A DNA stretch of 63,378 nt, counting the filler, from Stramenopiles sp. TOSAG23-3 (lineage: Eukaryota), in NCBI GenBank assembly GCA_900128585.1. It is 10 parts of 10 records of this genome, joined end to end, with 100 filler letters (N's around TTAATTAATTAA, not from the genome) between each part and the next. Parts side by side here need not be neighbours in the genome. Positions count along the whole stretch, not along the records: positions 47,445 to 56,795 come from LT642927.1; 9 more parts are not named here. One strand, 5' to 3'. The stretch's first letter is position 1. Each line of letters opens with the position of its first letter. The translations under genes and the position numbers were made by a program. This document shows, in pieces, positions 1 through 52,212 of the stretch. The notes beneath the pieces were generated by a model. The model worked only from the letters and a program-made list of their open reading frames with translations, did no database searches and had not been told where the DNA came from.

Positions 1-3000
1 CTCTGCCTTCTGTGGTCTGCTGAAGGGTATAGATTGAACCAGTGGGAGAAGTTTAATTATAGTGATCCTTTTGGCCGCGCATATTTCAACTTTGCAAGTA
101 CAAATGATGGCAGCTATGCCCTCATATATGGTGGCATGGGCGGCTCGACAACAACTTACGCGAAACCGTACTGCATGGTCCTCAAGGGAAACGCCGAAGG
201 AAATTACAGCCTTCGGATACAGGAACCACAAGGCGTCTCCCCTGGTTCCAGGTTTGCTTTTGGCATGGCCCCCGTGCGCAACGATGAAATCCTTCTTGTG
301 GGCGGAAGCATCGAATTTAGGTATTTAAACGGAACGTGGATATACAACGCGAAAAATAAGGCGTGGCGAAGGGCCGCGCTTGGAAGTAGCATGCCTTATA
401 TGAAGTACGTAGAGGTTGCAAAGTTGAACCATACCCACCTCCTTCTCTTTGGGGGGTCATATGCACATAGCTCGAAAACCCATCCTAAGGACGACTATCG
501 CAACACAACCTGGGTGTACGACTATAACGTTGATGCATGGGCCCCGTTGGATGTTGCAGTGAGTCCACCAGGCCGAAAGGACCATTGTATTGTACCGACG
601 GACCGTGGGCTTTTCCTTTTCGGGGGCAACGATGGCAAAAGAAACGCTGAGCACATGAACGATGCTTGGCTATTTTCAGGCAATGGGTGGCAACAAGTGC
701 AGCAACAAAACTCCTCTGAACCTTGGCCATCGAGGAGATCATCGATGTCGATGGCGTCCAATGGCACACATGTCATGCTTTTCGGCGGCAGGGGCGATGG
801 AATGGTACTTGACGATACTTGGGTCTTCACCGTTGTTACCTCGTCGTGGAACCAAATTTCCGCTGGAAACGTTGGCGAGTCAATTGAAAAAGGTCGGATG
901 AACTTTTTTGGGTCGAATTTCTTTCGCATGGGGGGGTTTCGAAATACGCAGTACAATAATGCCTTTGAAAAGTTAGTAGGAAATGAATGGCAGGCTATGA
1001 ACATAGGCCCCGAACCAAGTGGGATAAAAAAACATGCCATGGCCCGAATTGACGATAGCGTTGTGATCATTGGGGGAATGAAATCTGGCGGCACCGATTT
1101 GAACAATCTAGTGTGGAAATACAGCCGTGACGAGAAGTATTGGTCCATTGTAAAGCCTATGGTTCCTGGAACACAGCCGTCTCCCAACTTTCATAGCGCG
1201 GCGGCTTACCTTGAGCCAGGCAAAGCTTTGGTTTTTGGTGGGTATTACAAAACAAGTTACTACGGCGATACTTACACTTTAAGTCTGAAGAAAGGCGACA
1301 GCGTTGGTCAGTGGGAAAAGCTAAATCTCACCCATTCGCCGAAAGGGCTGGCATATCATGCAATGGCAGCAATTGTTGGTCGGCGGGCTGTCGTTTTGTT
1401 TGGCGGCCACTGGAGTGCTAGGAGTACATCATCCGACACGTGGGTGTTCTCTGCGTCAACGATGGGTTGGAGTCAAATTTCCGGGTATTCTCCTTCAGCT
1501 CGCGTTGGCCACGCCATGGCCTCACTGGGGGAAAACAAAGCAATTCTGTTTGGAGGCCGATTCGGTCCTACCTATAACAATGAGTTGTGGGAATTCAACT
1601 ACGACACAGAAACTTGGCGAAAAATCGAGCAAGGCCCAAACGGCAGCCCTTTCGATTGGCCACCAAGTCGCTACGGTGCTTTATTAGCCCCTCTGTACAC
1701 TCCAAACACAATGATTATGTATGGGGGCAAAGATACAGACATATTGACCGACACTTGGATCCTCTGGTTTGACGGAGCGAGCAACCATCATTGGGAACGG
1801 CATGCGTCAGATATAAATCCGTTGAATTCCTTTGAAGGAACCATCGCACCTATTGGAACTGGTCCGGGCACGGGCCCATCGGTTGAAGTCGTTGTCTTTG
1901 GGGGAGAGGTAACGAAAACGGTGAACAGTGAAACCACGTATTTCTTTCGGTCTAGTTGTGTGAGGGGAGCACAGTTGTCCGAGAACAAGAAGAACTGCGA
2001 GCTGTGCCCATTGGGAACGTACAGTGTGGATTCATCGCAGAAGTGCACCCCGTGCCCCCCCCAAATATCCACGTTAATTTCAGGCAGTAAAGACCGATTT
2101 GATTGTAACATTTGCAAAAAAGGCAAGGGTAGTTTGGGAGTATGCTCACTTATGGTTGAGGATGGAGACCCTACTCCACAATGGCCATATAAGCCACAGT
2201 GGAATTGCTACAAGGGCGTCTGGGGGAGACAGTGCGAGCACCGATGCCCTGGCTTCGACCCCGAGCTGATCGGTAAGCCTCAACCCGGTGTTTGCGGAAA
2301 GGGTTTAAATGGTATTTGCAACGATGGAGCAGACGGCGACGGGATGTGCCATTGCAGTTTTTTCTACTCTTTGAGTCCTAAAAACCATTGCAAGGTCCCC
2401 ATTACTGGCATTCTGTTTGGTGCCGTGCTACTACTTATGTTAGGGGGTATGTGCGCCCTGGCGAGGTACCGAGAAAAGCAAAAATTAATCCTTTCCGTTT
2501 TGTCCACAAGAGAAAACCAGCTCTTAAAGGCAAGCATTGAGCTGCGGCGCGAAAAAATTGAGACCCAAAAGGCGCAAGAAGGCTGGAGCATCCAAGAGGG
2601 CGAAATTACGCTAGGGGACCAAGTTGGCTCTGGGTCGTACGGCGACGTGTTTAAAGGCAAATGGGCCCCCTTGAAAGATGTGCCGGTGGCCATTAAAGTA
2701 GTTCGTTTTAAGCCTGGGGAAAAAGCAACTGCTTTGGACGATGCTGAAATGCTCTTGATGCAGAGGATTCGTCATCCTCGATTGGTCTTATTTTTTGGAT
2801 CGGGAGTTTTAAAATCCCGGAATTGTTCGTTTGCGGTTACAGAGTTTCTTGCTGGTGGAGATTTGATGGAGTTTATTGAAACTGCGGCAGCTTCGAATGA
2901 CTACGAAGGGGCTTACCCTTGGGAAATGCGGGTGCGCAGCGCACTGGACATAGCGGAAGGTATGGAATATTTGCACTCTCGAGACTGGGTCCACCGTGAT

Positions 3001-3726
3001 CTCAAAAGCGCAAACATACTGAGAGATGAAATAGGGCGTTGCAAAATTACCGATTTTGGCTTGTCCAAGTCCCTGTCAGGGCAGGGGGCGAAGGGTCCGA
3101 GCTCTGTTTCGTCAAAAAGCGCGCCCCGGAAACGATCGGTGGACACGAGCATTGAAATGACAGCGTTTACCGGCAGTGGTCCTTGGTTGGCGCCAGAATT
3201 AATAACAAAGAATTTTGAGGACATCGCTGTCGGTGGTAAAGAGGTGGATGTATACAGTTTTGGGTGCGTGTTGTACGAACTTGTGGAGGGCAGGATTCCG
3301 TGGTCCAATGCAAAGTGCTTAGAAGATATTTTTGGCTCTGTCGAGAATGGCGGGCGTCCAAAAGTTGCAACGCCAATGCCCAGTGGGCATGACCAGAGCT
3401 ATATACACTTAAAGGTCTGCAATTTAATGTCAGAATGCTGGCAACAATCTGCATCGCGGCGACCTTCGTTTTCTAAGATCGCGAAGGTATTGCATTCAGT
3501 GTACCAAGATCATTGTCGCACGCGCAAGCGAGCCAGTACGCGCGCAAGTCAGAGAACCAGTGCACTATTTGCCAGGAACAAGCAATCATGGGACAATGGT
3601 GTGAAGGATAAAACTGCATTTTTAGCGTCTGATTCTTTAGCTAAAGAGTCAAGTAATACTCGCGGGCGCAAATCGATCAGCAACCCCGTTGTGAAAATGG
3701 TTGCAAGAAAGAATGATATAGTGTGA
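1..3726 (+). CDS. Kelch-repeat receptor-like protein kinase (TKL group), probably 5'-truncated
   Basis: The frame is open from base 1 (LCLLWSAEG...). It contains many Kelch repeats (GG...W), Cys-rich CxxCPxGTYS and EGF-like segments, a TM helix (ITGILFGAVLLLMLGGMCALA), then kinase motifs GSGSYG, VAIK, HRDLKSAN, DFG, APE and DVYSFG. Confidence 0.9.
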   Translation, partial: LCLLWSAEGYRLNQWEKFNYSDPFGRAYFNFASTNDGSYALIYGGMGGSTTTYAKPYCMVLKGNAEGNYSLRIQEPQGVSPGSRFAFGMAPVRNDEILLVGGSIEFRYLNGTWIYNAKNKAWRRAALGSSMPYMKYVEVAKLNHTHLLLFGGSYAHSSKTHPKDDYRNTTWVYDYNVDAWAPLDVAVSPPGRKDHCIVPTDRGLFLFGGNDGKRNAEHMNDAWLFSGNGWQQVQQQNSSEPWPSRRSSMSMASNGTHVMLFGGRGDGMVLDDTWVFTVVTSSWNQISAGNVGESIEKGRMNFFGSNFFRMGGFRNTQYNNAFEKLVGNEWQAMNIGPEPSGIKKHAMARIDDSVVIIGGMKSGGTDLNNLVWKYSRDEKYWSIVKPMVPGTQPSPNFHSAAAYLEPGKALVFGGYYKTSYYGDTYTLSLKKGDSVGQWEKLNLTHSPKGLAYHAMAAIVGRRAVVLFGGHWSARSTSSDTWVFSASTMGWSQISGYSPSARVGHAMASLGENKAILFGGRFGPTYNNELWEFNYDTETWRKIEQGPNGSPFDWPPSRYGALLAPLYTPNTMIMYGGKDTDILTDTWILWFDGASNHHWERHASDINPLNSFEGTIAPIGTGPGTGPSVEVVVFGGEVTKTVNSETTYFFRSSCVRGAQLSENKKNCELCPLGTYSVDSSQKCTPCPPQISTLISGSKDRFDCNICKKGKGSLGVCSLMVEDGDPTPQWPYKPQWNCYKGVWGRQCEHRCPGFDPELIGKPQPGVCGKGLNGICNDGADGDGMCHCSFFYSLSPKNHCKVPITGILFGAVLLLMLGGMCALARYREKQKLILSVLSTRENQLLKASIELRREKIETQKAQEGWSIQEGEITLGDQVGSGSYGDVFKGKWAPLKDVPVAIKVVRFKPGEKATALDDAEMLLMQRIRHPRLVLFFGSGVLKSRNCSFAVTEFLAGGDLMEFIETAAASNDYEGAYPWEMRVRSALDIAEGMEYLHSRDWVHRDLKSANILRDEIGRCKITDFGLSKSLSGQGAKGPSSVSSKSAPRKRSVDTSIEMTAFTGSGPWLAPELITKNFEDIAVGGKEVDVYSFGCVLYELVEGRIPWSNAKCLEDIFGSVENGGRPKVATPMPSGHDQSYIHLKVCNLMSECWQQSASRRPSFSKIAKVLHSVYQDHCRTRKRASTRASQRTSALFARNKQSWDNGVKDKTAFLASDSLAKESSNTRGRKSISNPVVKMVARKNDIV

Positions 3727-4358
3727 AACAATTTCGAAAATTACATCAACATACAAAAAAAGCATTTTTAATATAGTTTGGGCTTTAAGAAAAAGTAAAA
3801 CACATTAAAGGATATCGCTACAAACTCGGAAATGATGATGTCGTGCACAATAAATGTTTATAATGTATCATGGGTTGATAAACATTTGATAGACTAACAT
3901 GTATTATAAATAAAACAACCTTAATTAATCTTACTTCTTCATTGATTAAAATCTTGGTAAAATATGCCTGCCCATGCTGTGGCTTGTTGTGTCAATCACA
4001 ACAAATAATTTCCAGATATTTTATAAATAATAATAAACAAAAAAATGTTTTCCCCCGTTCCTTCTCGCTCCGTCCTACCGGTGCCTGTATTATACCTGGT
4101 ACCGGTACCATTCAATTATCTAGAAGAGGAGTGGTGTGAGGGAATTGGATAAAATATGGAAACCATCCACATTTGTTGTGATCATCTTGTATTATTAGAT
4201 TAACACAAAAAAAAGGGTTTTAAAACCAGAAAGAAAAGGCAATAAAATAAAGAACACAAACAAGAAGTTGAATTGTTTTACTTAATAAAAAACGAATATT
4301 GTTAACCCCTTGAACAGACGTCCTTCCACCCCAATATAATTTCTTGTTTGGTAGAGTC

Positions 4359-7196
4359 ATGCGTTTCTGTTTGAAAGTAGTGTTGCTGTTCATTTATTAT
4401 ACAGCTTTCTGTTCCATCAGTCGTGCCGTTACTACACCGTATCGCAAAGACGTCATCGACTCGTTGTTGCAGTGGGTTGGTGCGCACAGTGCCAAAGATG
4501 GCGGTGTATTTATATCCGATAAAAAAAAGCAAGTGTACGAAGAAGTTACGGGGTACTATATTCCTACCCTCATAGAACATGGGGAAAGACATAAAGCGAA
4601 AGAATACCTTCAGTATCTGCTTAATACGCAAAAGACAGACGGGTCGTTTGGACTGAAAGGCGAAAGTTATGCGTTTGATACCGGGATGGTTATTCGCGGA
4701 TGGGTCGCGTTTTACCCTCGTTTGACGGATGGAAGCGATCTGAAATCAAGACTGACAAAGGCCCTGAAAAAGGCATGCTCGTGGTTAGCGGGGTACAGAG
4801 ATCCGCGGACAGGGCGATTTTTTGTCCCGGTCCATCAATGGGGATTGGACTACCATGGATATGTGTCAGAAGGCATACATCTTCTCGTGCTCAAACCTAT
4901 GATGGATTGCGGGGAACTGTTAAATCTGCCTCATGTCACAGAAGCTGCGAAGCAGATGAAACAGTCGTTTTTGAGCCCCGAGGTTGCGCAAGAGCTGGGC
5001 ATTACCAATTTTGAGCAGAGCCACATGCTGACTCACTTTTATGCGTACATTCAAGAAGCATTGGTGGAACTAGGAGAACATGCTTTGGCAACGCAAGGAA
5101 TGGCAATGGTGGCGAAGTACCAGGCCAACGATGGCGCGGTACCGGCTTATTACAATGTTAAATACGTGTGCACGACAGGCCTCGCTCAATTGGCCCTCGT
5201 GTGGTACAAGTTGGGCGACATTGACCGTGCTGACCGCGCATTGAACAGGGTGTTGGCCATGCGCAACGAAGGGACTGGTGGATTTTATGGTTCGGTGGGT
5301 AGCCAAGCAGACTATTTCCCAGATCAGGAGATCAGTTGGGCAGTAAAATATACGCTGGATGCGCTGGCGAGCTTGCCACAATCCCATTTTGACGCCACAG
5401 TAAACATTTATCCCACGCAGTTGCCAGCAAATGATGGGCGTGCTGAGGTGATAACGGCGCAAGTATTGAAGGTACAAAATGAATTGGGAAATAATCCGTT
5501 CAAGGTATTGGACGTTGGCGCAGGAAAGGGTAGGTTTGCACAACGAGTAAAAGAAACGTTCAAACAGGCCAGTGTTTATGCCGTCGACCTTTCCGAGAAT
5601 ATGCTTTCATTTGTGCCAAACAATATACACAAAAAACATGCATCGGCAACGTCGTTACCCTTCCCAGACAACTACTTTGCGGTTGTGTACGCAGTTGAGT
5701 CTTTGGAGCATGTCCCATTGCAAAATGCTGCCATATCAGAGATGGTTCGAGTTCTTTGTCCGGGAGGAATTCTTATAATCATTGATAAGAATGAGGAAGA
5801 CTACCGGTTCAAACAGTGGACCCTAGAGCCTTGGGAAAAATGGTTTTCGTGGGACGAGCTCGAAACTGTGTTCCTTTCGAACAAGTTGGGGGAAGTCAGC
5901 GTAAGTCCTATCGGTTACGAGCACATCACTGTCCCAGACGGGCTCATGCTTGCAGCGGTGGGCAGAAAAGGTGGGGTTCTGGCTAAATTATCCAGCGAAG
6001 CACGTGTCATTGACCTTAGTGGTTGCCCGGGTGTATCGGCAATGGATGTATTGGTAATTATAGGAACTCGACCAGAAGCAATAAAGTTAGCACCGGTTGT
6101 CAGGCAGCTAAAGGCGATTGGCCCTTGTATGCATGTTAAAGTTTGGGCCACCGGGCAACACTCGAGTTTGTTAAACCAAACTTTGGAAGCTATCAACTTA
6201 AACGTCGACCTAAACTTGAAGGCAATGGTGCCTGGTCAAGGTCTGGGCACGCTGCACGCTAATTTGCTTCATTTGCTGTCCCAAAATTTGAGAGCACAAA
6301 CAAAACCGTTTGATATGGTGGTTGTACAAGGGGATACCATGTCTACGTTGGCCGGGGCGGAAGCCGCGTTCTACTCCAAAATACCCGTTGCGCACGTAGA
6401 AGCAGGCCTAAGAAGTCATAACAAATCTTCCCCTTTCCCCGAGGAAATTAATAGACGATCAATATCTCTCCTAGCAAACCTCCATTTTGCAGTCAGCGAG
6501 CAGGGGGCAAACAATTTGAAGGCTGAGAATATCATGGAAAACGTGCACGTAGTCGGAAATACTGTCATCGACCAAATTAAAACCACTATAGATGCAGTTA
6601 TGGACGTCCAGACTGCCAAAAACCTCAATGAAATTTTTCACGCAGGGCCGAAGAAAACGTACATCCTTGCATCCTTGCATCGTCGTGAGAACCATGGAAA
6701 CCGGCTGGAACTGGTCTGCAATTGCCTGGTGGAATTTACCCACCAAAACCCAAACGTCCACGTGATATTTTTGTTGCACCCAAACCCAAATGTGGTAAAG
6801 CCGGTCTCAAATATGTTAGAAAATAACGAGCAAATTACCATGGTAATCCCATTGCCATATGCAACCATGACCCATGTTCTGAACAGGGTGCAATTAGTAT
6901 TTACCGACAGCGGGGGGCTGCAAGAAGAGGCCATTGCCTTAGGAAAGCCAGTGCTAGTCTTGCGCGACAATACTGATCGCCCCGAGGGCAATCCTGTGGT
7001 GCTTCAACGTTTTGAAAAGGAACACTTTTTCCAGCTGGCACAGAAGGTCTTAGAGAAAAGTTTTGCAGTGCAGAATACGTGCGCATCTGACGATGGCGAC
7101 TATGCCTCAAAATGCATGGACACAGTGTATGGGGACGGCGAAAGTAGCTTAAGGATTGTAGACCTGATAGTCCAGTTTATCAAGGACTCAAGATGA
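4359..7196 (+). CDS. Three-module fusion: alpha/alpha-toroid (prenyltransferase/squalene-oxidase-like) domain + class I SAM methyltransferase + non-hydrolysing UDP-GlcNAc 2-epimerase (WecB-like), with a hydrophobic N-terminal signal
   Basis: First ATG is at 4359. The toroid-like repeats include YEEVTGYYIPTL and TQKTDGSF. The methyltransferase shows VLDVGAGKGRF and LPFPDNYF. The WecB motifs are GTRPEAIKLAP, TGQH, QGDT, HVEAGLRS, PFPEE, GNTVID, HRREN, TDSGGLQEE and YGDG. Confidence 0.85.
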   Translation: MRFCLKVVLLFIYYTAFCSISRAVTTPYRKDVIDSLLQWVGAHSAKDGGVFISDKKKQVYEEVTGYYIPTLIEHGERHKAKEYLQYLLNTQKTDGSFGLKGESYAFDTGMVIRGWVAFYPRLTDGSDLKSRLTKALKKACSWLAGYRDPRTGRFFVPVHQWGLDYHGYVSEGIHLLVLKPMMDCGELLNLPHVTEAAKQMKQSFLSPEVAQELGITNFEQSHMLTHFYAYIQEALVELGEHALATQGMAMVAKYQANDGAVPAYYNVKYVCTTGLAQLALVWYKLGDIDRADRALNRVLAMRNEGTGGFYGSVGSQADYFPDQEISWAVKYTLDALASLPQSHFDATVNIYPTQLPANDGRAEVITAQVLKVQNELGNNPFKVLDVGAGKGRFAQRVKETFKQASVYAVDLSENMLSFVPNNIHKKHASATSLPFPDNYFAVVYAVESLEHVPLQNAAISEMVRVLCPGGILIIIDKNEEDYRFKQWTLEPWEKWFSWDELETVFLSNKLGEVSVSPIGYEHITVPDGLMLAAVGRKGGVLAKLSSEARVIDLSGCPGVSAMDVLVIIGTRPEAIKLAPVVRQLKAIGPCMHVKVWATGQHSSLLNQTLEAINLNVDLNLKAMVPGQGLGTLHANLLHLLSQNLRAQTKPFDMVVVQGDTMSTLAGAEAAFYSKIPVAHVEAGLRSHNKSSPFPEEINRRSISLLANLHFAVSEQGANNLKAENIMENVHVVGNTVIDQIKTTIDAVMDVQTAKNLNEIFHAGPKKTYILASLHRRENHGNRLELVCNCLVEFTHQNPNVHVIFLLHPNPNVVKPVSNMLENNEQITMVIPLPYATMTHVLNRVQLVFTDSGGLQEEAIALGKPVLVLRDNTDRPEGNPVVLQRFEKEHFFQLAQKVLEKSFAVQNTCASDDGDYASKCMDTVYGDGESSLRIVDLIVQFIKDSR

Positions 7197-31400: not shown

Positions 31401-34400
31401 TGACAATATTTGATGCAGCCGGAGACTTTTTCTGGTGAGCATAGCCCAGCTGCTCCACACAACCCGTTTTCTATTTAATCTATTCCGAGCGGTGAAATTC
31501 AATACCAACCTGAGTGTATGATGGTGAGTTTTTTGACCACGTAGCTTTAGATCGTTGTTATTTTTGATTGCAACAGCGCGCTTGCGCCATTTTGAAAAAC
31601 AAACTCTTTCCCCCTGTATTACGCGGCGGCGTAGCACCATGCCGATTGCCTCTACTTTCTCCTTTTGGAAGCAGTAGTATTTATACCAGCCTCGAAACGA
31701 TAGTAATAGAAGGGCTTTGACTTTGTTGGACTGTCGCGCGGCAAGAATGCGCGCGGATTCCAAACGTAACGTATCCCGAAATCGCATAATTTTACGTTTC
31801 CAAGTGCTGAGAGCATATCGATAGAGCCTGGCCCGAGTTTGGCGAAGAAGCTTCAAAATGCTGACTTTGGCGTTTTGGCTTACGTTCACACGACACCGCC
31901 AGTAAAACCAGACCTTGACGAGCACAAACTTGCGTTTCTTTAGCAGACGGCTTTGGATAAGTCGCTTTGTGTGTAAGTTTCTTTGAGTCTTAGCATACCA
32001 AGCGTTGAAATAGCGGAGGCACATCTTTTCCGAATACCGCCTCACCAGGTGCGTGGAAAGCATGGCAAGTCTGTGGCCTTCTATTTCGTCAAAGCACATG
32101 TTGCTGGTGTGCTTGTCCCATATGCGAAATGCGGTGCTGAAATATTTATAACGGGCTGACAACACCAGAGACCTCAGGCTCTTTTTGCGTCTTCCTTCCA
32201 ACGAACTTAATTTATCGAGTTGTTTCTCTCTCCTCAAGTCTGAGAGCATCTGATCCAGTTCTTCCTTTTCAACCTGGGATTTCTGCTCCATTGCGCCAAC
32301 GACCCATTCTTGCCAGCTTCTGCGCAAATATTTTTGTTTCATGGTTAATATTAGCGCCGTAAGCAATCTTGCTTTGAGTTTGTGCTCATGATGCTTTGCA
32401 GTTGTGCGGCGTTCTTCTTCCAGGCGCTGAATTTCAAGTTCCTGCTCTTCAGCAAGAAACATACATTCGTGCGTTCGATAGTTTACGCACAACTTAAGCC
32501 AGCCATGTCGCAAATACTTAATTTTCATAACAGCCAAAATTGATTTTATAGATCGAAACCGATCACGCTGCAAACGGGCTGAAGCGTGAGATTTTCGTAA
32601 CCAAATACCCCAGGATTTTCTGTACAAGAACATTTGATACTTGGTGAAAGCATTGGCAATTGCCCATCGAAGCTTTCTCCTCCGCTGCAAAAAAGACTTC
32701 CACCGAAAAATTGTAGTTCTCCCAATTTGCGCGCTTGTCTTTTGCAAGTGCCTCTTTAAGATTACGCGAATGCGCACTGTCCTAGACGCGGTTCTTTGCC
32801 ACCTATGAAAGAATGCCCCCTTCTTCTGTTTGCGCAAGCCCAATGCTTTTTCTTGCACGAGCATCAACCGCAATGCGTTGGTTTCAGCGCTGCTGTTGGC
32901 AGCAGCCGATGCTTTCTCCTGCACGAAATGGTTGTATACTTTCTGTTTTTCTTTCTTTATTTGATCTACTTCCTCGCGCCTATCGCGTTTAAAATGCGCC
33001 ATTTCATCGTCTTTACAGTACAAGCACCACTTGTGCCATCCGGCGCGCAAATATTTTTGCTGTAGCGCACTAAGCAGTGGCTTTAGGACAAAGTACCTAG
33101 CATTGAGTATCCCGGTCCACCCGGCTGAAAAATACCGCCATCGTCCAAACGCCTGTCTGTAGCATGAGGTCCGTCGGTGAGTAACCAGGCGGCCCAAAAC
33201 TTGACGATACCGACGACGGCTCGACAGAAAATAGGCCCAGCGGGCCATCGCTTTCATCGACGTTCGTTTGTCGACGGTTACCAAGTGGTTTCGCAGCAGT
33301 AAGTTTCTGCGCGCGGATCGGGACGCGTACCGTTGCCATGAGAAAAAATGCTTCCGTTGGTACCAGCACCTGCTGTGCTTTTCAGCTTGAGATTCCATTA
33401 ACCTGCGGTTCCTTACCAATTCAAGATGGTACTCATAATTTATGAACAGAAAGTACCACTTTTTCCACGCTTTCCTAATCATTCGTAGCCTCAAATGCCC
33501 CAGGATGGTTTCTATGTCCTTTGTGCTCTCTACCATATAATTGTTAAAATCACGCCACGCGATTAGCGCACTGCGCTTCCGACCCTGATCACGCTTTCGA
33601 ACCAGGGACAAGAGAATAGTTAGGGCATGGTTGTTCCTTACTTCACCCCCAACTGCATCGTTGGAAAATTGTTTCCAGGCGCAAAACCGAAGGAAAAGGT
33701 TTCTCTTCTTCAGGCAGGAGAAGACGCGCCGAAACAGTTTGGTGGCCACTCTTTTCTCTTCGACGAGAATTCTCCAATGTCCGAGGAACGCTTTTGATCG
33801 AAGGTGCTGGTACCGTTTTCCGATGGCGGCAACGGCGTTATCGGTGCGCTTTTTTTGTTTGGTGTACAGCACACCCTCCCGCCACCTTCGCAAGGCTTTC
33901 GCTTGCATGATACCGATGGAGGCCTTCGTAACGTGTTTTCTGAGTCGGAAGACCGTCTTCATGTACTTGTTCCCCCGTTTTCTATGAAACGACATCATGT
34001 AATCTTTCAGATGGAGAAAACTTTGGCGGATGCGTTTTCGCACGAATTTTGTTATGACGAGATTCATGTTTTTGAGAACAACTTGGTTTAAAGCCTTTTT
34101 GGCAAACTCAAAATCCTCGATTGCCTTGATGCACTTCAGCTCCAGCGCATTGTCTTTCTTTTGAATGCTCTCGGACAGTGTCATCAGTTGGTCTATGGAG
34201 GCCTGCTTCGTCTTGAGCCTGCCGTTGATAACGGCGTCGTACTTTTGTTTTTCGACCATTAGCGCTCTACTGTGGTTCTCCTCCACACGCTCTAGCTGGG
34301 ATTCCTGTTCTACTTTTAGGGTATGAAGGGTTTCTTCCACCCCGTCTTTGTGGCCTTTTTGAAAAGCCATATCTACTAGCTGCCGGCACTCGGCTTGGAC

Positions 34401-35312
34401 TTGCTTTGCGAACTGGGCTCGATCCGTCTTGATTTTCTCTATCTTTTGCAAATATGAAGCGTTTTGGGACTGAATCATTTCTGTTTCCCGTGTGTGTTTT
34501 CGTTCGTCCCTGAGAACAGTGTCTTTCAGTTTTGAAATGGTTTCGTTGGCCTTGTCGAGCATGGCCAACATGTTCTTTTGCTGGTGTTTCTTCTTCTCCA
34601 GGATCTTCTTCAAAATGACCTGCTCCATGACGACTTCGGGATCGGCTTGCCGCATTTTACCGTTGATGATGATGTTCCGTTCTGGGGCGTTTTCGAGCTC
34701 GTCTGCTTCCTGTCTCACCAGCGCCCGGTCCACTGTATCAGAAAATTCATGGGTCAGCTGCTGGGCAAGCAACCTTTGGTTCTCGGTTTTGTACTCTATT
34801 AGTTCTGCCTCGTATTTGTCCCCCAACCGCTTCAGGGCAAGCTCTTTCTCGACCGTAAGCATTGCCTGGAGTGCGTCCAACTGCTGCTGGTAGAACGACG
34901 GAACGCGTTCGCTTCGTGGTGCATGCCTCCTGATCGAATCTAACGTGAAAGGAGTTCGAATATTGTGCGACGAGGCCAAGGGGCCATTCGGCGTTGGTAA
35001 GAACGAGGTGCTGCGGCCCAGGGACGACGGGGCGTACGGGGAAAATTCCCCTATCGTGCCCCCCTCCCCGATTTCCCTAACTGCAGCGGTTGGCGCCATG
35101 TCTGGGCCCACCGGCACCCGCGGACCCACCGGCACCCTCAGATCTGCACTAGTTTGGTAGATCACTTTCCCAATTGTGCCCCCCGGCAAGGCTTTGACGC
35201 CGTGTTCATTTGTTGAAGCGATGGATGGGGGAGCCAACGCGGCGACTCCCTCAGGCAGTGTGTCGTCCTTGGCACCGTCCACTTGAACTTCTTCTACGGT
35301 CGGTGTGCTCAT
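28488..35312 (-). CDS. Giant Sfi1-repeat (centrin-binding-like) coiled-coil protein, 3'-truncated
   Basis: Dozens of periodic basic (L)xxxFxxW(K/R) repeats. The first ATG is at 35312, and the ORF runs off the contig end. Confidence 0.75.
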
Positions 35313-36283
35313 AGTGTCGCAATCCAAAAGGCTTCTTCAACTATGTATTCGCATATGCACACTCATTGTATTTCAAGGGTCTTGCCTTTGCTTATTCCAT
35401 ATGGGTTTTACGAATTATGTGTTCAAAAATAGTAAAGGCCGACAAACAACTCTTTTGAAGGACTCTTTTTCCGCGCGAATGCACAGGAGCGAGGGATCGA
35501 AAAATAAACAATACGGCGATTTTCCTTCTCTAACACTAGACAGTTGTTTCCACAGCAAACAAATCGTCAGAGAAATATCGATTGGTAGACAACCTTAATA
35601 AATGATTCGTTAAAAGAAATAGAATCTAAACCTTTGTGAGCCCCCCCCCCCATAAGTATAAACATAAAAGTTTTTTATTTTATCAAAATCAAATGTTCAA
35701 ATGAAGAAGAAAGAAGCAAGAAGAAGAGAGAAGAGAAGAAAAAAGAGAGAAGATATTATTAATAATAATAATGAAGAAGATTTGTTTTTTTAATAAAAAA
35801 ATAATAATAATAATATTTTTTTGTTTTGTGTATTTTTTTCTCTTCATCATCATCAACATCTTGTTGTATGTTGTGTACCTGTTTAATAATGTTTTAATAA
35901 AAAAAGAATTATTGAAAAACTAGAGATTAAAATTTAAAAATACAGGTGCAGAGCAAAGGGAACAAAAAAGAAGAAGAAAAAAAGAAGGAGATCGATATAG
36001 TTTCTTCTTTTATCAATGCTCTGTAATATTATAATTAATTAAGGTATTTATCTTCCGTATTCATAGATCTGTTAATTATTATAATTATGACACGTTATAT
36101 ATCGACAACATATTATTCAATTGAGTACACAAAACCTTTACGTTAATAATCATAATTTTTTCTTCTTCCTTCCTTTTCCTTCCTTCATTCCTCCTTCCTT
36201 CCGCTCACTTCGCTTCATTCTTCTTTTCTTCTTCAATAATCGTAGTCTCCTTTACATCCGTTGTGTTGTTTGTTTTTTGATTA

Positions 36284-37871: not shown

Positions 37872-38672
37872 TCNNNNNNNNNNNNNNNNNNNNNNNNNNN
37901 NNNNNNNNNNNNNNNNNTTAATTAATTAANNNNNNNNNNNNNNNNNNNNNNNNNNNNNNNNNNNNNNNNNNNNTTTTTTTTCGTTTTTATTATTATAACA
38001 TAAACACAGCATTATCTTGCGACGTTCATAGATAAATTATTATCTCATTTATTATTAAGTACAATAATATAATATTACAATATAATCACACCATAGAAAT
38101 CCCATCTCAAATCGTTAAAAAAAAAAAAGTTGTTGTCGTCTAAAAAAAAAAAGTAAAATAGGCCGGATAAAAATATAAAAAAATAATAGTATAATCACAC
38201 CATAGAAATCCCATCGAGTTCCACGCACAAATAAATGAACAAAAAAGAAGAAGAAGGAAGAAGTTTCTTTTTTTTTCTTCGAAAGTATTGCCTTATTTGT
38301 ATTATTCCATGGTATTACTTTACCTGTTGGCCGCGCGTCGTGCGTATACTATTTCCCTACAAATACTGGAAAGAAGCGCTTGAATATTTCCCCATCGTGT
38401 CGTTCTTCTTTGCTTGTTCTTTTGTTGTTGCTGTAGTATGGTTGTTTTTTTAAATTTACTACTTCATGTTTGTTCCTTTCTTATCTATTTATATACTTAA
38501 AAGACTTTTCAAACTAAAACGAAGAAGAAGAAAAAAGAAAACCAAATTGATACATTGAAAAAATATTTATGAATATTCAGTAAATAAACGATTTATTAAT
38601 CTTTATTTACTTTGACGACAATTCAAAACCAGACGAAACATTTGCAAAGTTATAAAAGCGTAAGAGGCTTAA

Positions 38673-46883: not shown

Positions 46884-47590
46884 TTTGTTGAATTGTTCTG
46901 CGTCTCACTGCTAACAGCCAGGAAATACCCAACAAAATCGTGGAAATCTACACTGTTTTCTTTTAATCTTGAACATATCTTTTAATTCAAACAATTCGAA
47001 GGTATACTGGACAATTATTATATTCATTCAACGAAAGAGACACAAAAAAAAATCACATCATCATCATTCATTCATCATCCTTTTTTTTTTATTATTATTA
47101 TAATAATATTATTTTTAAAAAAGTTTTATTTATAATAAAATATAAATAAAATAATAATAATTTAAATCCAATATTGTTGTTTTAGAAGAGAATACCAAAT
47201 AGTATAATATTGCCCAATAGCTCTTTTCTTCTTCTTTTACTACAAACGACGTATAACTCTAACACATAAATGAGATAATAATTTATCTATGAACGTCGCA
47301 AGATAATGCTGTGTTTATGTTATAATAATAAAAACGAAAAAAAANNNNNNNNNNNNNNNNNNNNNNNNNNNNNNNNNNNNNNNNNNNNTTAATTAATTAA
47401 NNNNNNNNNNNNNNNNNNNNNNNNNNNNNNNNNNNNNNNNNNNNGTTTTTTTCAAGTCGTATACATAAACCTGCGTAAATGTATTTTCTGAAGATCCAAG
47501 TCTACTAAGAGTATCATGGATTTAAAATCAATATGATATTTTTTACATATTTGTTTAAAAAATCTTGTTCGCACGAAAATTTTTCTAAAA

Positions 47591-49378
47591 TCAAAACGCA
47601 TATTTACTTTTCAACATGTCGTTTATTTTGACACCTCTTCTGGCGTATTTATTATTGCATACCTGACAGCACCAGGCAAACACGTCATCCCCAAATAAGT
47701 CGAGCATTTTTATCTTTTTATTTTTCATGCCGCACCTGGAGCACTTCCAGTCTGCTGCCGGCGGTTTGTACTCACGGTGGGTGCATTGCTCCTTCAAATG
47801 ATAATCCAAGTCTTCAAATCTCATGGTATCACGGCAACCGTTTGAGCACTCCACAAATCGCAGAGGACAATCTCCCCTTTCATGAAGCTTTCTTCGTACC
47901 TCTGACACTTGGAACCCGCACCCAAGGCTGCATAAAACCTGCCTTTGCTTGCACTCCCACGTCTCATGGTATTCACGGTCTTCCTCTCTCATCGTTTTGT
48001 AGCAGCCCATGCTGCATGTAACGAAGCGTTTCTTGCAACGGTACTTCTTGTGGCTCTCCATGTTACAGAGCAGAATTATTTCGCCACAGTCATTACCACA
48101 GGGCACTTGCTTCCGTTGGCAATCGTGCCTCCAGTGATCGTCCATGGTGTTGAGCCGAACCAATTCTCCACAACCATGAATTCGAACTAGTTTTACTTGT
48201 TCCTTCATTTTACTGGGGGTTTTCCTCGCCGCGTTTTCTTCTTTCTTCAACTTCATCCCGTAGTCTTCCTGTTTCGAAACGTTTCGGGACAGACTCCGTT
48301 CACGCAAAAATATATCTTCACCATCTTCTGGATTCAAATCATCATCTTTTAAGACGGTGTTTTCAGGCACAAAAATATGGTCACATTTCACCAAACGGTA
48401 CTCGCATTCACGTTTTTCATGCTGATCTCTTTGACTAAAGGGAAAACGAATTATGCAATGCGATGAGCGACAGTCCACAACCCGCATTTGGCACTCAGAT
48501 TTACGATGCTCTCTGTAATGGCGCTCTTGAATTGTTTCTCCACACTCACAATTGATGATGCGGTAAGGGCACTCGTCCTCTTCATGCTCTTGCTGGCGTT
48601 TTGCTCTGCACCAGGTTAGCGCACCATCACGATGTTGCAAAAGCGATCGAAAACGCTATGCAAGGGGTGCTGTTGACGGCACGTAGGGAAGGGCAGGAAC
48701 GCGAGCGGGTGGCGAGACTGCATCGGATACTTTTGGAGAACAGGGACCGCAGGGAGCTAATGGAGCTGGCGCTAATGAACAAAGACGTGAATGCCCTTCG
48801 AGGCGTTTGCAGCCCACTGCCATCGGCGCATATAAAAGCTGGGTACGACGACCACGTCATGAACGTGCAAGACATGAAACCCTTCATCGCTTCGTATTAC
48901 AAGAACTGTGACACCCAAAAGCATGGGAACCAAAAGACTGACGGGGACGATGTACAGGTGAACGATTTAGACGTCCCTTTGATTGGGGAAGCGAGTAGAA
49001 TGGCCTTCGATGCCGCGCTTCTAGAGCTGAAAGAGGACGCTCCAGACCCTGTTCCCCGCAACGTTTCCTACTGGCCCAATCTAATGCCGTTTTCCCCTTC
49101 CCGTCCTTGACAAATACTAAATCTCTCAAAATCCGTTCCCCGCGGGCAACATCTAACAACAATCGGGTACACTTCAGGTGGCCATTCCCAGCTGCCCGCA
49201 TCAAAGCCGTGCGACCGTACTTGTTTCTTGCAAGCTGGTCAGCACGCTCTAAAAGAAGGTCTTGCAGAAGATCGTAATCACCATCTGCACAGGCTTTCAT
49301 CAATGCCGTATCCCCATTTTTCCCCAGCACCTCGTCAACGTCGCCAGACGAAATTAATTCTAGATCCTCGATTTTCAT
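47591..49378 (-). pseudogene. Ankyrin + TRAF-type zinc-finger gene disrupted by an internal 456-bp inversion (48615-49070)
   Basis: Ankyrin repeats (GDTALMKAC, GRTALMRAA, GKTALDWA) and TRAF fingers (H...CxxRxxxC) are on the minus strand. The middle part reads on the plus strand, and both junctions rejoin in frame when it is flipped. Confidence 0.85.
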
Positions 49379-50133
49379 TCCTGTTTTGGAGGGAATAGGA
49401 ATATTCGCTTCCCGCACACAAACACGTACGCAACCACTTTCTTTTTTAATGTTTTAAACAAAACTTCACATTCTGTACTATTTATTTCCGTTGTGAAATC
49501 ATTTCCTGGTCAATCGAATCGAATTGGTACTTGGAGACTTCAGCGAAAGAAAAAAGCCGTTATTTTTTTATTATAATATATTATTATTTTATTATATTGA
49601 TCATCATCATTTTTAGTAGACAAAATTTACCTTATTATCATACTCTAGTAGAATAGAATGGTATCTACATCTTTAGAATAAATAATTGGTTTATCATGCA
49701 TTCAATTAAAAAATCATTTACATCCATTAACATTATCAATAGTATAAGGATGTTCGCATAGTTTTGTAAATGTTCCTTAAACCTATTCCAGCATCTCCTC
49801 AAATATCATAATTTTGTTTTTTTTGTCTTCATCTCTCTCTCCCAGCAGCCCAGCAGCCAGCGCACATTTAATAATCTCTATCATATCTCATATAATAATA
49901 ATAATAATAATGCATATTATTGTTATATATGAATGTCTTTTTGGTTTTGTTTGCTCTTCAATTTGTATAACCGTTTTAATATTTTAAACGTATTGCAATA
50001 AATTGATAGACAAACATGAATGAAGTAGAACTTTTTTTTCTCTCTCTCCAAGACTTCTGCCCCGCTGTCAATTTTTGGATTCTGAATTGATGCACCAAAC
50101 GATCATTATAGATAAATAGATTGACGGAGGAAG

Positions 50134-52212
50134 ATGGCCTCGTTGGGTGGGGACCAGGACGAGATTGATGACCTTGAATTCCAGAAAATGTTGGATTTAA
50201 TGAATTCCATCGAAAGGCCGCAGGAATTGAAAGAGATGACGTCGTCGGTGGTGGTACATGCCAACAAAGAGGTAAAGAAGAAGACGAAAAAGACAGTCAA
50301 CGTTCCCGTTCCAGAAAAACAGGAGTACGTGGACCCGTTGGAAGCGTGGAAAGGAAAACTACGTGTTGTGTTCATTGTGGGGGAACCGGAGTCTGACTCT
50401 GAGAATTTAGCCCGAGAAGTATCCAAAATGCTGGGGCATAACTTGATCACTGCGTCGAAAGCCATCAAAGATATGATAAACGACGAAGGGTTGAGCGAGA
50501 GCCTGAAAAAAGATCTGAGCGGGAACTTGTCCATGACCCCGCCCGACGTGTTTCGTGCCGTCAAGCACGCTCTGCGAGGGGTCCTCGATAGCCATGACGT
50601 GACAATGACGGGGGCGACGGAGCTGTGTTTCATCATTGAAGGGTTTCCTTCCACCTTAGCCCTGTCTCAGGCGTTTGAAGCGCAGATTAAAACTGCACAA
50701 CTCTTAGTCTACATAAAAACGTTTCGGGGGTTCAAAAAAATGAACTCCGCCCTTCCCGTCGTAAAAACCGATAATAAGAGGCAGGGGTGGGGTAAGAAAG
50801 GGGGAAATTCCGGGGGTGGTTTTTCTGCGGCCGCACCAAGTGTCAACCAGGCAGGGGGAAACGGGAAGGGTTGGGGCAAGAAAAAAAGGAACGGTGCAAA
50901 AATACCGGTCAATTCGTTCGAAGAAGAAGCCGCGAAAAAGCGAGTAGAAACGGAGAAACAAAGAAAATTATTTAGAGAGCTTACGGGCGAAATGCGGGAG
51001 AGGTACGAGAAAGAGGGGCGACTTGTTACGATTTGGGGGGGAAGGCGAAGAGAGGAGATGATGAAGGACCTCCTCGGGCTTTTCGACGAGGTTCCCGTAA
51101 AAGTCTTGGTGGAGACAAAGAAGAAATCGAAGAAGGTCATAATTCAGCACAAAAGTCACAAAAACGACCAGGTGGACAAACAGGGACTGGTCACGTCTGG
51201 CATTCAGGCCAACACGAGCGTCCATACGTTCTTTCGTGGAGGAGAGAGCGAGACAATCCCGATCCCGGAATCGATGACTCCCCAGAGGCTAGTGCCCCCG
51301 AAGGAGTCCCTGGAAATTGACCTTTTGAATTGGCTGAAAAGTCTTTACCTTTGGAACGGCCCGGTGGTACAGGATTTTCGTTGCTGGAGGAGAAAGTTTT
51401 CGAATGGCTACATGATGGCAGAGTTGATAGAATCGTACTTCCACCCGAATGTGATAGATTTACATACGTTTGACAAATATGCCAACTCGACAAAGAACAA
51501 AGTCGATAATTGGAATCGGATTATACTGGTGTTACGAAATTTACGGTATAGGTTCAAGAAGCTGGAGGTCAACGTCGACGTAAACCTGTTGATGAACGAA
51601 CGAAAAGGGTCTGCGGTCAGGGTGCTTCGTCGTTTTTATACGGGTTTGATGCGAAGAGGGATTACTCCGGAGACGAAATTTTTGAAGCTTCCAAAAGAGA
51701 AAGAAGAAGAGGTCTACGAGGAAGAGGTCGCCGTTGCATCGGACAAGCCCCCAGACTTTCTGAACGTGGCGTTGGGTAAGATTAAGACCGCTTTGGATTC
51801 ACGAATGAAACCTAATATTAAGGCGTTTCAAGGTCGCCCGTTGGACATGAAAGAATTCAAAGGCCTCCTGAAGCAGGAGTTGCGCGTGACACTGACTGGT
51901 CACGAGTTACGGGAGACCTTTAAATACTTTGACCAGGACAACAGCGGCGATATCGATTACGCGGAAATTATACACAAAATTTACCACAAGGAGCGCCTTC
52001 ATGTTGCCAGACCATCAGGGGCAAATCGAGATGGAGGAAATCCCAGCCCTAAGAAAAGGCAAATCATCGATAAGAAAGACAAAACAATTCGAAAAGAATG
52101 GAAGGGCTCCCTTACTAGCACCAAGTTAGACGCTGTGGAGATAAGCATTGTTTTCGAAGACGGGGACAACACGGAAGTTCTCGTTGGAAAGATGGCGGAG
52201 GAGGAACTGTAA
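50134..52212 (+). CDS. Degenerate adenylate-kinase-like domain + SPEF1/SPATA4-type CH domain + EF-hand protein
   Basis: AK-like with a broken P-loop: FIVGEPES...IIEGFP. CH domain: LLNWLKSL...FSNGYMMAEL...KVDNW. EF-hand: DQDNSGDIDYAE. Confidence 0.7.
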   Translation: MASLGGDQDEIDDLEFQKMLDLMNSIERPQELKEMTSSVVVHANKEVKKKTKKTVNVPVPEKQEYVDPLEAWKGKLRVVFIVGEPESDSENLAREVSKMLGHNLITASKAIKDMINDEGLSESLKKDLSGNLSMTPPDVFRAVKHALRGVLDSHDVTMTGATELCFIIEGFPSTLALSQAFEAQIKTAQLLVYIKTFRGFKKMNSALPVVKTDNKRQGWGKKGGNSGGGFSAAAPSVNQAGGNGKGWGKKKRNGAKIPVNSFEEEAAKKRVETEKQRKLFRELTGEMRERYEKEGRLVTIWGGRRREEMMKDLLGLFDEVPVKVLVETKKKSKKVIIQHKSHKNDQVDKQGLVTSGIQANTSVHTFFRGGESETIPIPESMTPQRLVPPKESLEIDLLNWLKSLYLWNGPVVQDFRCWRRKFSNGYMMAELIESYFHPNVIDLHTFDKYANSTKNKVDNWNRIILVLRNLRYRFKKLEVNVDVNLLMNERKGSAVRVLRRFYTGLMRRGITPETKFLKLPKEKEEEVYEEEVAVASDKPPDFLNVALGKIKTALDSRMKPNIKAFQGRPLDMKEFKGLLKQELRVTLTGHELRETFKYFDQDNSGDIDYAEIIHKIYHKERLHVARPSGANRDGGNPSPKKRQIIDKKDKTIRKEWKGSLTSTKLDAVEISIVFEDGDNTEVLVGKMAEEEL

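Follow-up and report, generated by a model that had tools for sequence, protein, structure and literature searches.

Layout of the ankyrin/zf-TRAF locus

The window, by which we mean the whole 63,378-nucleotide stretch of Stramenopiles sp. TOSAG23-3 DNA that was analysed, consists of ten concatenated contigs of 1.5-9.4 kb (six of ~9.4 kb and four of ~1.55 kb), with artificial spacers between them such as the unstranded one at 47345..47444, which is made up of 44 N, a 12-nt all-frame stop and another 44 N. Its gene layout is one of long open frames with eukaryotic domains and AT-rich spacers between them, and its DNA is present in marine metagenomes, as judged from a run listing by sampled words. 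The long frames include one of at least 1241 codons that combines Kelch repeats, an ephrin-receptor-like cysteine motif and a protein kinase domain (1-3723, plus strand), a 960-aa ORF in which a class I methyltransferase domain is fused to UDP-N-acetylglucosamine 2-epimerase (4314-7193, plus strand), and an 832-aa ORF with a TET-associated glycosyltransferase domain (10581-13076, minus strand; PF20691, E 1e-8). The 832-aa ORF is followed at 13223-15600 by direct repeats (230 nt at 93% and 80 nt at 99%) and a 122-nt inverted pair at 97.5%. Two other frames, of 2283 codons (28488-35336, minus strand) and 664 codons (19579-21570, plus strand), gave no Pfam match at E ≤ 0.001.

The ankyrin-TRAF locus lies near the left end of the contig at 47445-56795, and is built from three pieces of a larger native gene. 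Piece A, the gene start (49075..49378, minus strand), carries ankyrin repeats in native orientation (native residues 14-114/115; Pfam Ank_2, E 2.9e-25). Piece B (48613..49072, plus strand) encodes the end of an ankyrin repeat and a linker (native residues 116-268), and is inverted with respect to both A and D. Piece D (47591..48612, minus strand) carries zf-TRAF fingers in native orientation and ends with the stop codon (native residues 2317-2655; Pfam zf-TRAF, E 4.2e-11). The initial annotation had described a minus-strand ankyrin frame that reaches GKTALDWA at 49073, a plus-strand ORF at 48613-49074 that carries on the ankyrin repeat, and a minus-strand zf-TRAF frame from 48610; all three hold. 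Also borne out is the inverted match between CCAG (48611-48614) and CTGG (49071-49074), which bounds 48615-49070 and measures exactly 4 nt with no inner extension. When these 456 nt are flipped, the locus indeed reads as one open frame of 595 codons plus stop.

We found no longer inverted repeat at the ends of the flipped segment among the best 25 of 230 inverted pairs by length. The open frame itself is weak evidence for a flip, because a single open frame also results from 705 of the 2250 breakpoint pairs that we tested around the junctions, and we dropped it as an argument. These 705 pairs fall into 546 distinct classes, and in two of these classes the ends match over 4 nt in inverted orientation. 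Long ORFs and the GC track of the window's other contigs, inspected by eye rather than by homologue comparison, gave no obvious second flipped gene.

The native gene and the three junctions

A cluster search from P0003, a protein in which more TRAF fingers precede D, led to two full 2655-aa proteins from two collections, P0025 and P0028, which show five residue differences besides the first residue. The native gene has the order A-B-C-D in one intronless frame of 2655 codons, and encodes an ankyrin/zf-TRAF protein (2642 aa from the same Met as the window) that its source record names 'ankyrin repeat protein'. Pieces A, B and D correspond to native residues 14-115, 116-268 and 2317-2655, and P0025 and P0028 each differ from them at no more than one residue. 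The 101 residues of A are identical in P0025 and P0028; the 153 residues of B show no difference to P0025 and one to P0028; and D is identical to P0020 at 339/339 residues, with no difference to P0028 and one to P0025. Missing from the window is piece C, which spans residues 269-2316 (2047 codons, ~6141 nt or ~6.1 kb, 77% of the frame) and contains further ankyrin blocks and most of the zf-TRAF fingers; no part of it was found in the window at E < 1e-30. The earlier claim that the flip restores a whole gene of ~595 aa thus fails, since the native protein has 2655 aa and 2047 codons are missing between B and D. Nor was the inversion 'precise': of the clean reciprocal double junction that had been described, one end is clean and the other lost ~6.1 kb.

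A Pfam search of P0025 gave 7 Ank_2 and 15 zf-TRAF stretches and no further family at E ≤ 0.05, and hence neither a RING nor a MATH domain. The native protein also has a distant orthologue, collinear with it over residues 35-1021 at 39% identity. Both results mark the lost part C as coding sequence of long standing rather than an inserted element. Moreover, five of the six differences between the window and run X3 in D are synonymous; with the collinear orthologue, this makes the intact gene look constrained. Since the single metagenome scan yielded one locus from 449 pattern matches, the native DNA of C is known here from no more than 30 loose letters. Within P0025, residues 492-1140 and 2130-2610 contain ankyrin and TRAF finger blocks that are alike at ~27% identity and resemble an old internal duplication. 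A further cluster member, P0032 (native residues 1-111), matches residues 1-109 and then has a different two-residue tail, which would fit a one-base loss in an ankyrin motif, through either a sequencing error or another broken allele. When P0003 was compared with viral contigs, one stretch fitted the pattern and none was confirmed.

At the first junction, J1 (49071..49074, unstranded), the end of A is joined to the far end of the inverted B. By comparison with L001, a locus from the metagenome scan, A-derived letters can reach 49071. The native protein continues Tyr-Ser at the end of B, from which we work out that 49071 comes from B and that the overlap is 1 nt; should Ser be encoded by TCN, 49072 would come from B as well, and the overlap would be 2 nt. 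At the second junction, J2 (48611..48614, unstranded), the start of B is joined to D and ~6141 nt of the native gene (C) are gone. B-derived letters can begin at 48611, again by comparison with L001. The X3 contig departs from the window at 48612, and its next letters encode KWKDNGCEG, the native residues before D, so that the overlap at J2 is 2 nt.

With overlaps of 2 and 2 nt, the tetramer is one native word cut midway, with no base lost or doubled, and its second copy was itself formed by the non-native join. The same letters also fit two steps, in which C would be lost with zero overlap and B then flipped via the 4-nt match; the two routes are indistinguishable by sequence alone. The proposed 4-bp inverted microhomology therefore stands as a match in the window but is not shown to be a native repeat pair, the overlaps with native sequence being 2 nt and 1-2 nt. 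Likewise, both junctions are in frame after the flip, as had been observed, but this is little evidence because one of them simply recreates the native join, and at the other one random join in three would keep the frame open.

A third junction, J3 (47445..47523, unstranded), joins the 79-nt edge of a high-copy repeat to the 3′ flank of the gene with a 2-nt overlap at 47522-47523. It lies 68 nt past the stop codon and 1.1 kb from J2, at a point where other samples carry unique DNA: the runs X12 and X3 and locus L001 all stop following the window at 47522 and continue in a shared stretch of unique DNA, which in L001 runs on to a CRAL-TRIO gene. Pieces over the repeat edge reach depths of 14,500-17,000 in X12 and X2, whereas the gene is covered at 8-22. 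J3 could be either a chimera or a polymorphic insertion. Copies of the repeat edge depart from the window at 47511, 47514 and 47523 in different runs. The neighbouring contig end holds a perfect 79-nt inverted pair (37974-38052 and 47266-47344) of the same length as the repeat edge, which probably represents assembly overlaps with a collapsed repeat.

Forms of the locus in other samples and assemblies

In a listing of 24 runs, all sampled words were present only in X1 and X2, both marked as possible sources, while RNA runs held at most 0.21 of the words. Four of the 24 runs, X2, X3, X4 and X12 (X1 not among them), were compared at the locus as contigs. In X2, the probable source, one 9254-nt contig with a depth of 21.8 spans J1 and J2 and matches 47494-50400 unbroken and with no differences, showing that the rearranged molecule was sequenced in the source and was not invented by the assembler. 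A mis-assembly made purely in software might be suspected because the assembly is fragmented and its contigs end at repeats. We give it next to no credence, since Logan's separate assembly of the probable source run follows the same path in one contig at this depth. Nor can a k-mer graph be misled by overlaps as short as 1-2 nt. Of the amplification or assembly chimera that the initial annotation had allowed for, the software half thus falls with the X2 contig, and the amplification half is now the best reading.

The X3 and X4 contigs join A to B natively, as do L001, P0025, P0028 and P0017 (an 83% relative); B is therefore truly inverted in the window, as had been proposed. Both orientations had been suggested for comparison, and among the run contigs the un-inverted A-B join is found in X3 and X4, while X2 holds only the inverted form. 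Intact copies share the window's upstream flank. Both X3 and X12 stop matching the window at 48612 and continue for 1249 and 251 letters, respectively; the departure of X12 at the C/D point is known by position alone. X12 is another sample labelled with the same organism and is identical to the window in D, where it has coverage; most of B is at no depth and A has none, which we take as a hint of drop-out only. The C/D point is crossed natively by P0003 and by six of the nine members of the native protein's cluster, which need not be independent samples, and the other three do not reach it. The inverted form was absent from the contigs of X3, X4 and X12, in which a rare allele would be missed. 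The flipped 595-aa state, with B joined directly to D, was found in none of the four runs and in none of the nine cluster members, and when B was searched against proteins of 271-2000 aa, none of A-B-D length came up. Finally, no native joint was seen in the X2 contigs, though contigs drop rare forms.

These comparisons bear on the proposal of a reversible ON/OFF inversion switch, or of ciliate-like scrambling with 4-nt pointers. Either would account for the 4-nt inverted match at both ends and the open frame once flipped, and the un-inverted A-B join does exist in other samples. However, the flipped product lacks 2047 of 2642 codons, so that the 'ON' state would be without 77% of the protein, and that state occurs in none of the runs or cluster members compared. 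C is present in those un-inverted samples whose sequence extends to the C/D point, and these therefore represent the intact gene rather than the other switch state; the contigs of the source run show one orientation only. An invertible switch has the same DNA content both ways and one whole gene, whereas the flipped form here lacks 77% of it; instead of inverted recombination sites with a recombinase, the locus has 4 nt, and no recombinase family matched in the 28 ORFs and proteins scanned, including the main ORFs of the contig at 47445-56795. Pointer-guided unscrambling meets the same lack of 77%, and no spacer/pointer arrangement is present: there is no spacer at either junction, and C is absent from the window. 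Because no flip returns the lost 6 kb, we exclude a switch or scrambling, to which we would grant only a very slight chance.

The sole locus from the metagenome scan, L001, has A and B straight and joins B directly to D (window 48944 to 48526, L001 1835), with a 1-nt overlap, a frameshift and a loss of ~6.36 kb. Its breaks lie close to those of the window, 128 nt apart on the left and 86 nt apart on the right. We rejected this deletion as an intron, its left end having neither GT nor GC. The near-coincident losses in L001 and the window are poorly explained by independent chance breaks; for independent random breaks in an 8-kb gene, a rough estimate of the coincidence is ~1 in 1000. One reading is that the loss of C is recurrent or inherited in the wild, through an in-frame A-B-D allele or a fragile or targeted interval. 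An A-B-D allele would have had B flipped via the 4-nt inverted match in the window's lineage, and would have lost a further 215 nt, with a frameshift, in that of L001. This path gives the loss-free A/B boundary and the 4-nt match without added assumptions, and no difference separates the window from L001 along 334 nt in B and 1005 nt in D.

We nonetheless hold a recurrent or inherited loss to be improbable. The direct B-D join occurs in none of the four runs, and no protein of such length appears in the 271-2000 aa search or among the nine cluster members. On the A side, the window and L001 differ over 1.5 kb by three substitutions and three indels. Identity in D shows no shared deletion, because X12 is also identical there and yet departs from the window at the native point. 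Moreover, no repeat shared by B and the start of D stood out from chance, the score being equalled or exceeded in 17 and 72 of 200 shuffles. If a recurrent loss were true, one and the same core of 6.1-6.4 kb would be lost time and again from this giant ankyrin/zf-TRAF gene in wild populations of the marine protist. The L001 coincidence, if real in unamplified samples, would then mark a recurrent, possibly selected, natural knock-out of a conserved giant immune-type scaffold gene.

The rearranged form also appears in a second assembly. A 453-aa gene model in a public eukaryote protein collection, P0001, consists of CRAL-TRIO, an antisense stretch of D, and B; it covers window positions 48071-48145 and 48619-49107 and reads past J1 exactly as the window does. 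In its assembly, a single piece carries both the inverted form and the CRAL-TRIO neighbour, which is missing from the window. P0001 would be explained by co-assembly of the source with an X12-like sample, and equally by a second carrier. The rearranged form has in this way entered a protein collection as a false 453-aa protein.

Origin of the rearrangement and comparison with known systems

The locus is most likely a one-off deletion-inversion, either an amplification artefact or a one-off broken allele, and not a genetic switch. In our view, the order A, inverted B, D probably arose through two switches during whole-genome amplification (phi29 MDA) of one protist cell, and the resulting chimera is the only form of the locus that came to be assembled. 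We infer the amplification from the source itself, which looks like an amplified single cell: the source and X12 runs are small and carry one-organism labels (8-16 million letters of contigs), X12 shows drop-out of A and B, and the depth ratios are extreme, with a repeat-to-gene ratio per piece of ~800-1700 in the source and X12 runs, against less than 60 in X3 and X4. In such a reaction, a nascent strand would stop at the A/B boundary, prime 456 nt away on the displaced strand in opposite polarity, and copy B backwards to the end of that strand. Its second priming would be at D, ~6.6 kb downstream. That no base was lost at the A/B boundary might be due to two strands meeting end to end at that point or to a break in the template, and the switches would have to occur early enough in amplification for the chimera to dominate.

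Published properties of MDA products bear on this picture. In the excerpted text of PMC1855051, inversions accompanied by deletions accounted for 85% of the 475 chimeras, 83% of inversions linked sites less than 10 kb apart, and about one junction arose per 22 kb. The joins here are likewise inverted, with sites 456 nt and ~6.6 kb apart (less than 10 kb) and 6141 nt lost. Chimeras with two junctions (2-level) occur, according to an extract of PMC4595205. A portion of a further report describes early chimeras that attain high depth, and 1,607 misassemblies in a short-read assembly of one amplified algal cell (10.64898/2026.06.11.730069). The form is also private to the probable source, and a third non-shared junction, J3, lies 1.1 kb off, both of which would fit a chimera. 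Against it, the overlaps of 2 nt at J2 and 1-2 nt at J1 are allowed but short, since those of MDA chimeras are mostly at least 2 nt with a peak at 6-7 nt in the quoted parts of PMC5372508 and PMC4595205, and L001 lost almost the same interval. The X2 contigs are without a native junction, though a late chimera should coexist with native molecules; this is not decisive, because contigs drop rare forms. In addition, P0001 carries the inverted form in another assembly, which may rest on the same reads.

The junctions themselves also bear on a real null allele, private to a cell or lineage, in which the gene broke at A/B and within C, C was lost and B was re-joined backwards. We regard such an allele as possible but rather unlikely. 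The route, just as tentatively, would be end joining or template-switching repair giving a deletion-inversion complex variant. In the available extract of PMC7702065, inversion junctions in vivo are blunt or have 1-6 nt overlap, with little or no loss at one break, and real human inversions commonly show a loss-free break on one side with 1-3 nt overlaps, which counts against a chimera. The window's junctions follow this pattern, with 1-2 nt overlaps and one break without loss: as in the NHEJ/MMEJ junctions of real inversions in that extract, no base was lost at A/B. The source run moreover shows a single form at even depth, and P0001 shows that form in a second assembly. The allele was nevertheless not seen in the contigs of X3, X4 or X12 or in any native-cluster protein, and would destroy a conserved gene.

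Under either origin the product does nothing, because both halves are cut and no flip returns C, so that the arrangement amounts to a dead allele, as the initial annotation had allowed. We judge it more likely that the deletion-inversion was made in the tube than in the sea. As biology, the locus is most likely of little consequence, being neither a switch nor a 595-aa gene. It does carry a caution, in that a flipped piece that 'restores' an open frame can mask a multi-kilobase loss, and such a hidden loss is shown only by full-length homologues.

Among known families, the native gene shares both domain types with ankyrin-repeat plus TRAF-type zinc-finger proteins (PF12796, PF02176). Classical TRAF proteins have RING and MATH domains, whereas the native protein here has neither by Pfam. 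Phase-variable invertible segments such as Hin/hix, the fim switch and shufflons have long inverted recombination sites and a recombinase. The locus resembles these in that a flip of a few hundred bases alters an open frame, and differs in having no long inverted sites, one orientation, and another state that is not a whole gene. In ciliate scrambled genes, as an excerpt of PMC10901763 describes them, coding segments (MDS) are out of order, split by eliminated IES and linked by pointers. Like the spirotrich germline genes in that excerpt, the locus has a reversed coding piece with a short repeated word at its ends. Unlike them, it has no eliminated spacer, most of its coding sequence is missing rather than reordered, and the gene is un-inverted in other samples, where it sits in ordinary chromosomal DNA between shared flanks.

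Two systems come closer. With deletion-inversion variants (delINV; NHEJ, MMEJ, MMBIR), the locus shares one loss-free break, overlaps of 1-2 nt, an adjoining deletion and a single form. It differs in that 0.46 kb was inverted and 6.1 kb lost within one coding frame, and in that such variants exist in unamplified DNA, whereas this one is known from the probable source and from P0001, which may share reads with it. In phi29 MDA chimeras the overlaps are usually longer, the two switches here meet at one base, and amplification is inferred in our case; otherwise the locus shares with these chimeras its inverted joins between sites less than 10 kb apart, its short overlaps, the loss of the intervening DNA, its restriction to one sample and its entry into an assembly.
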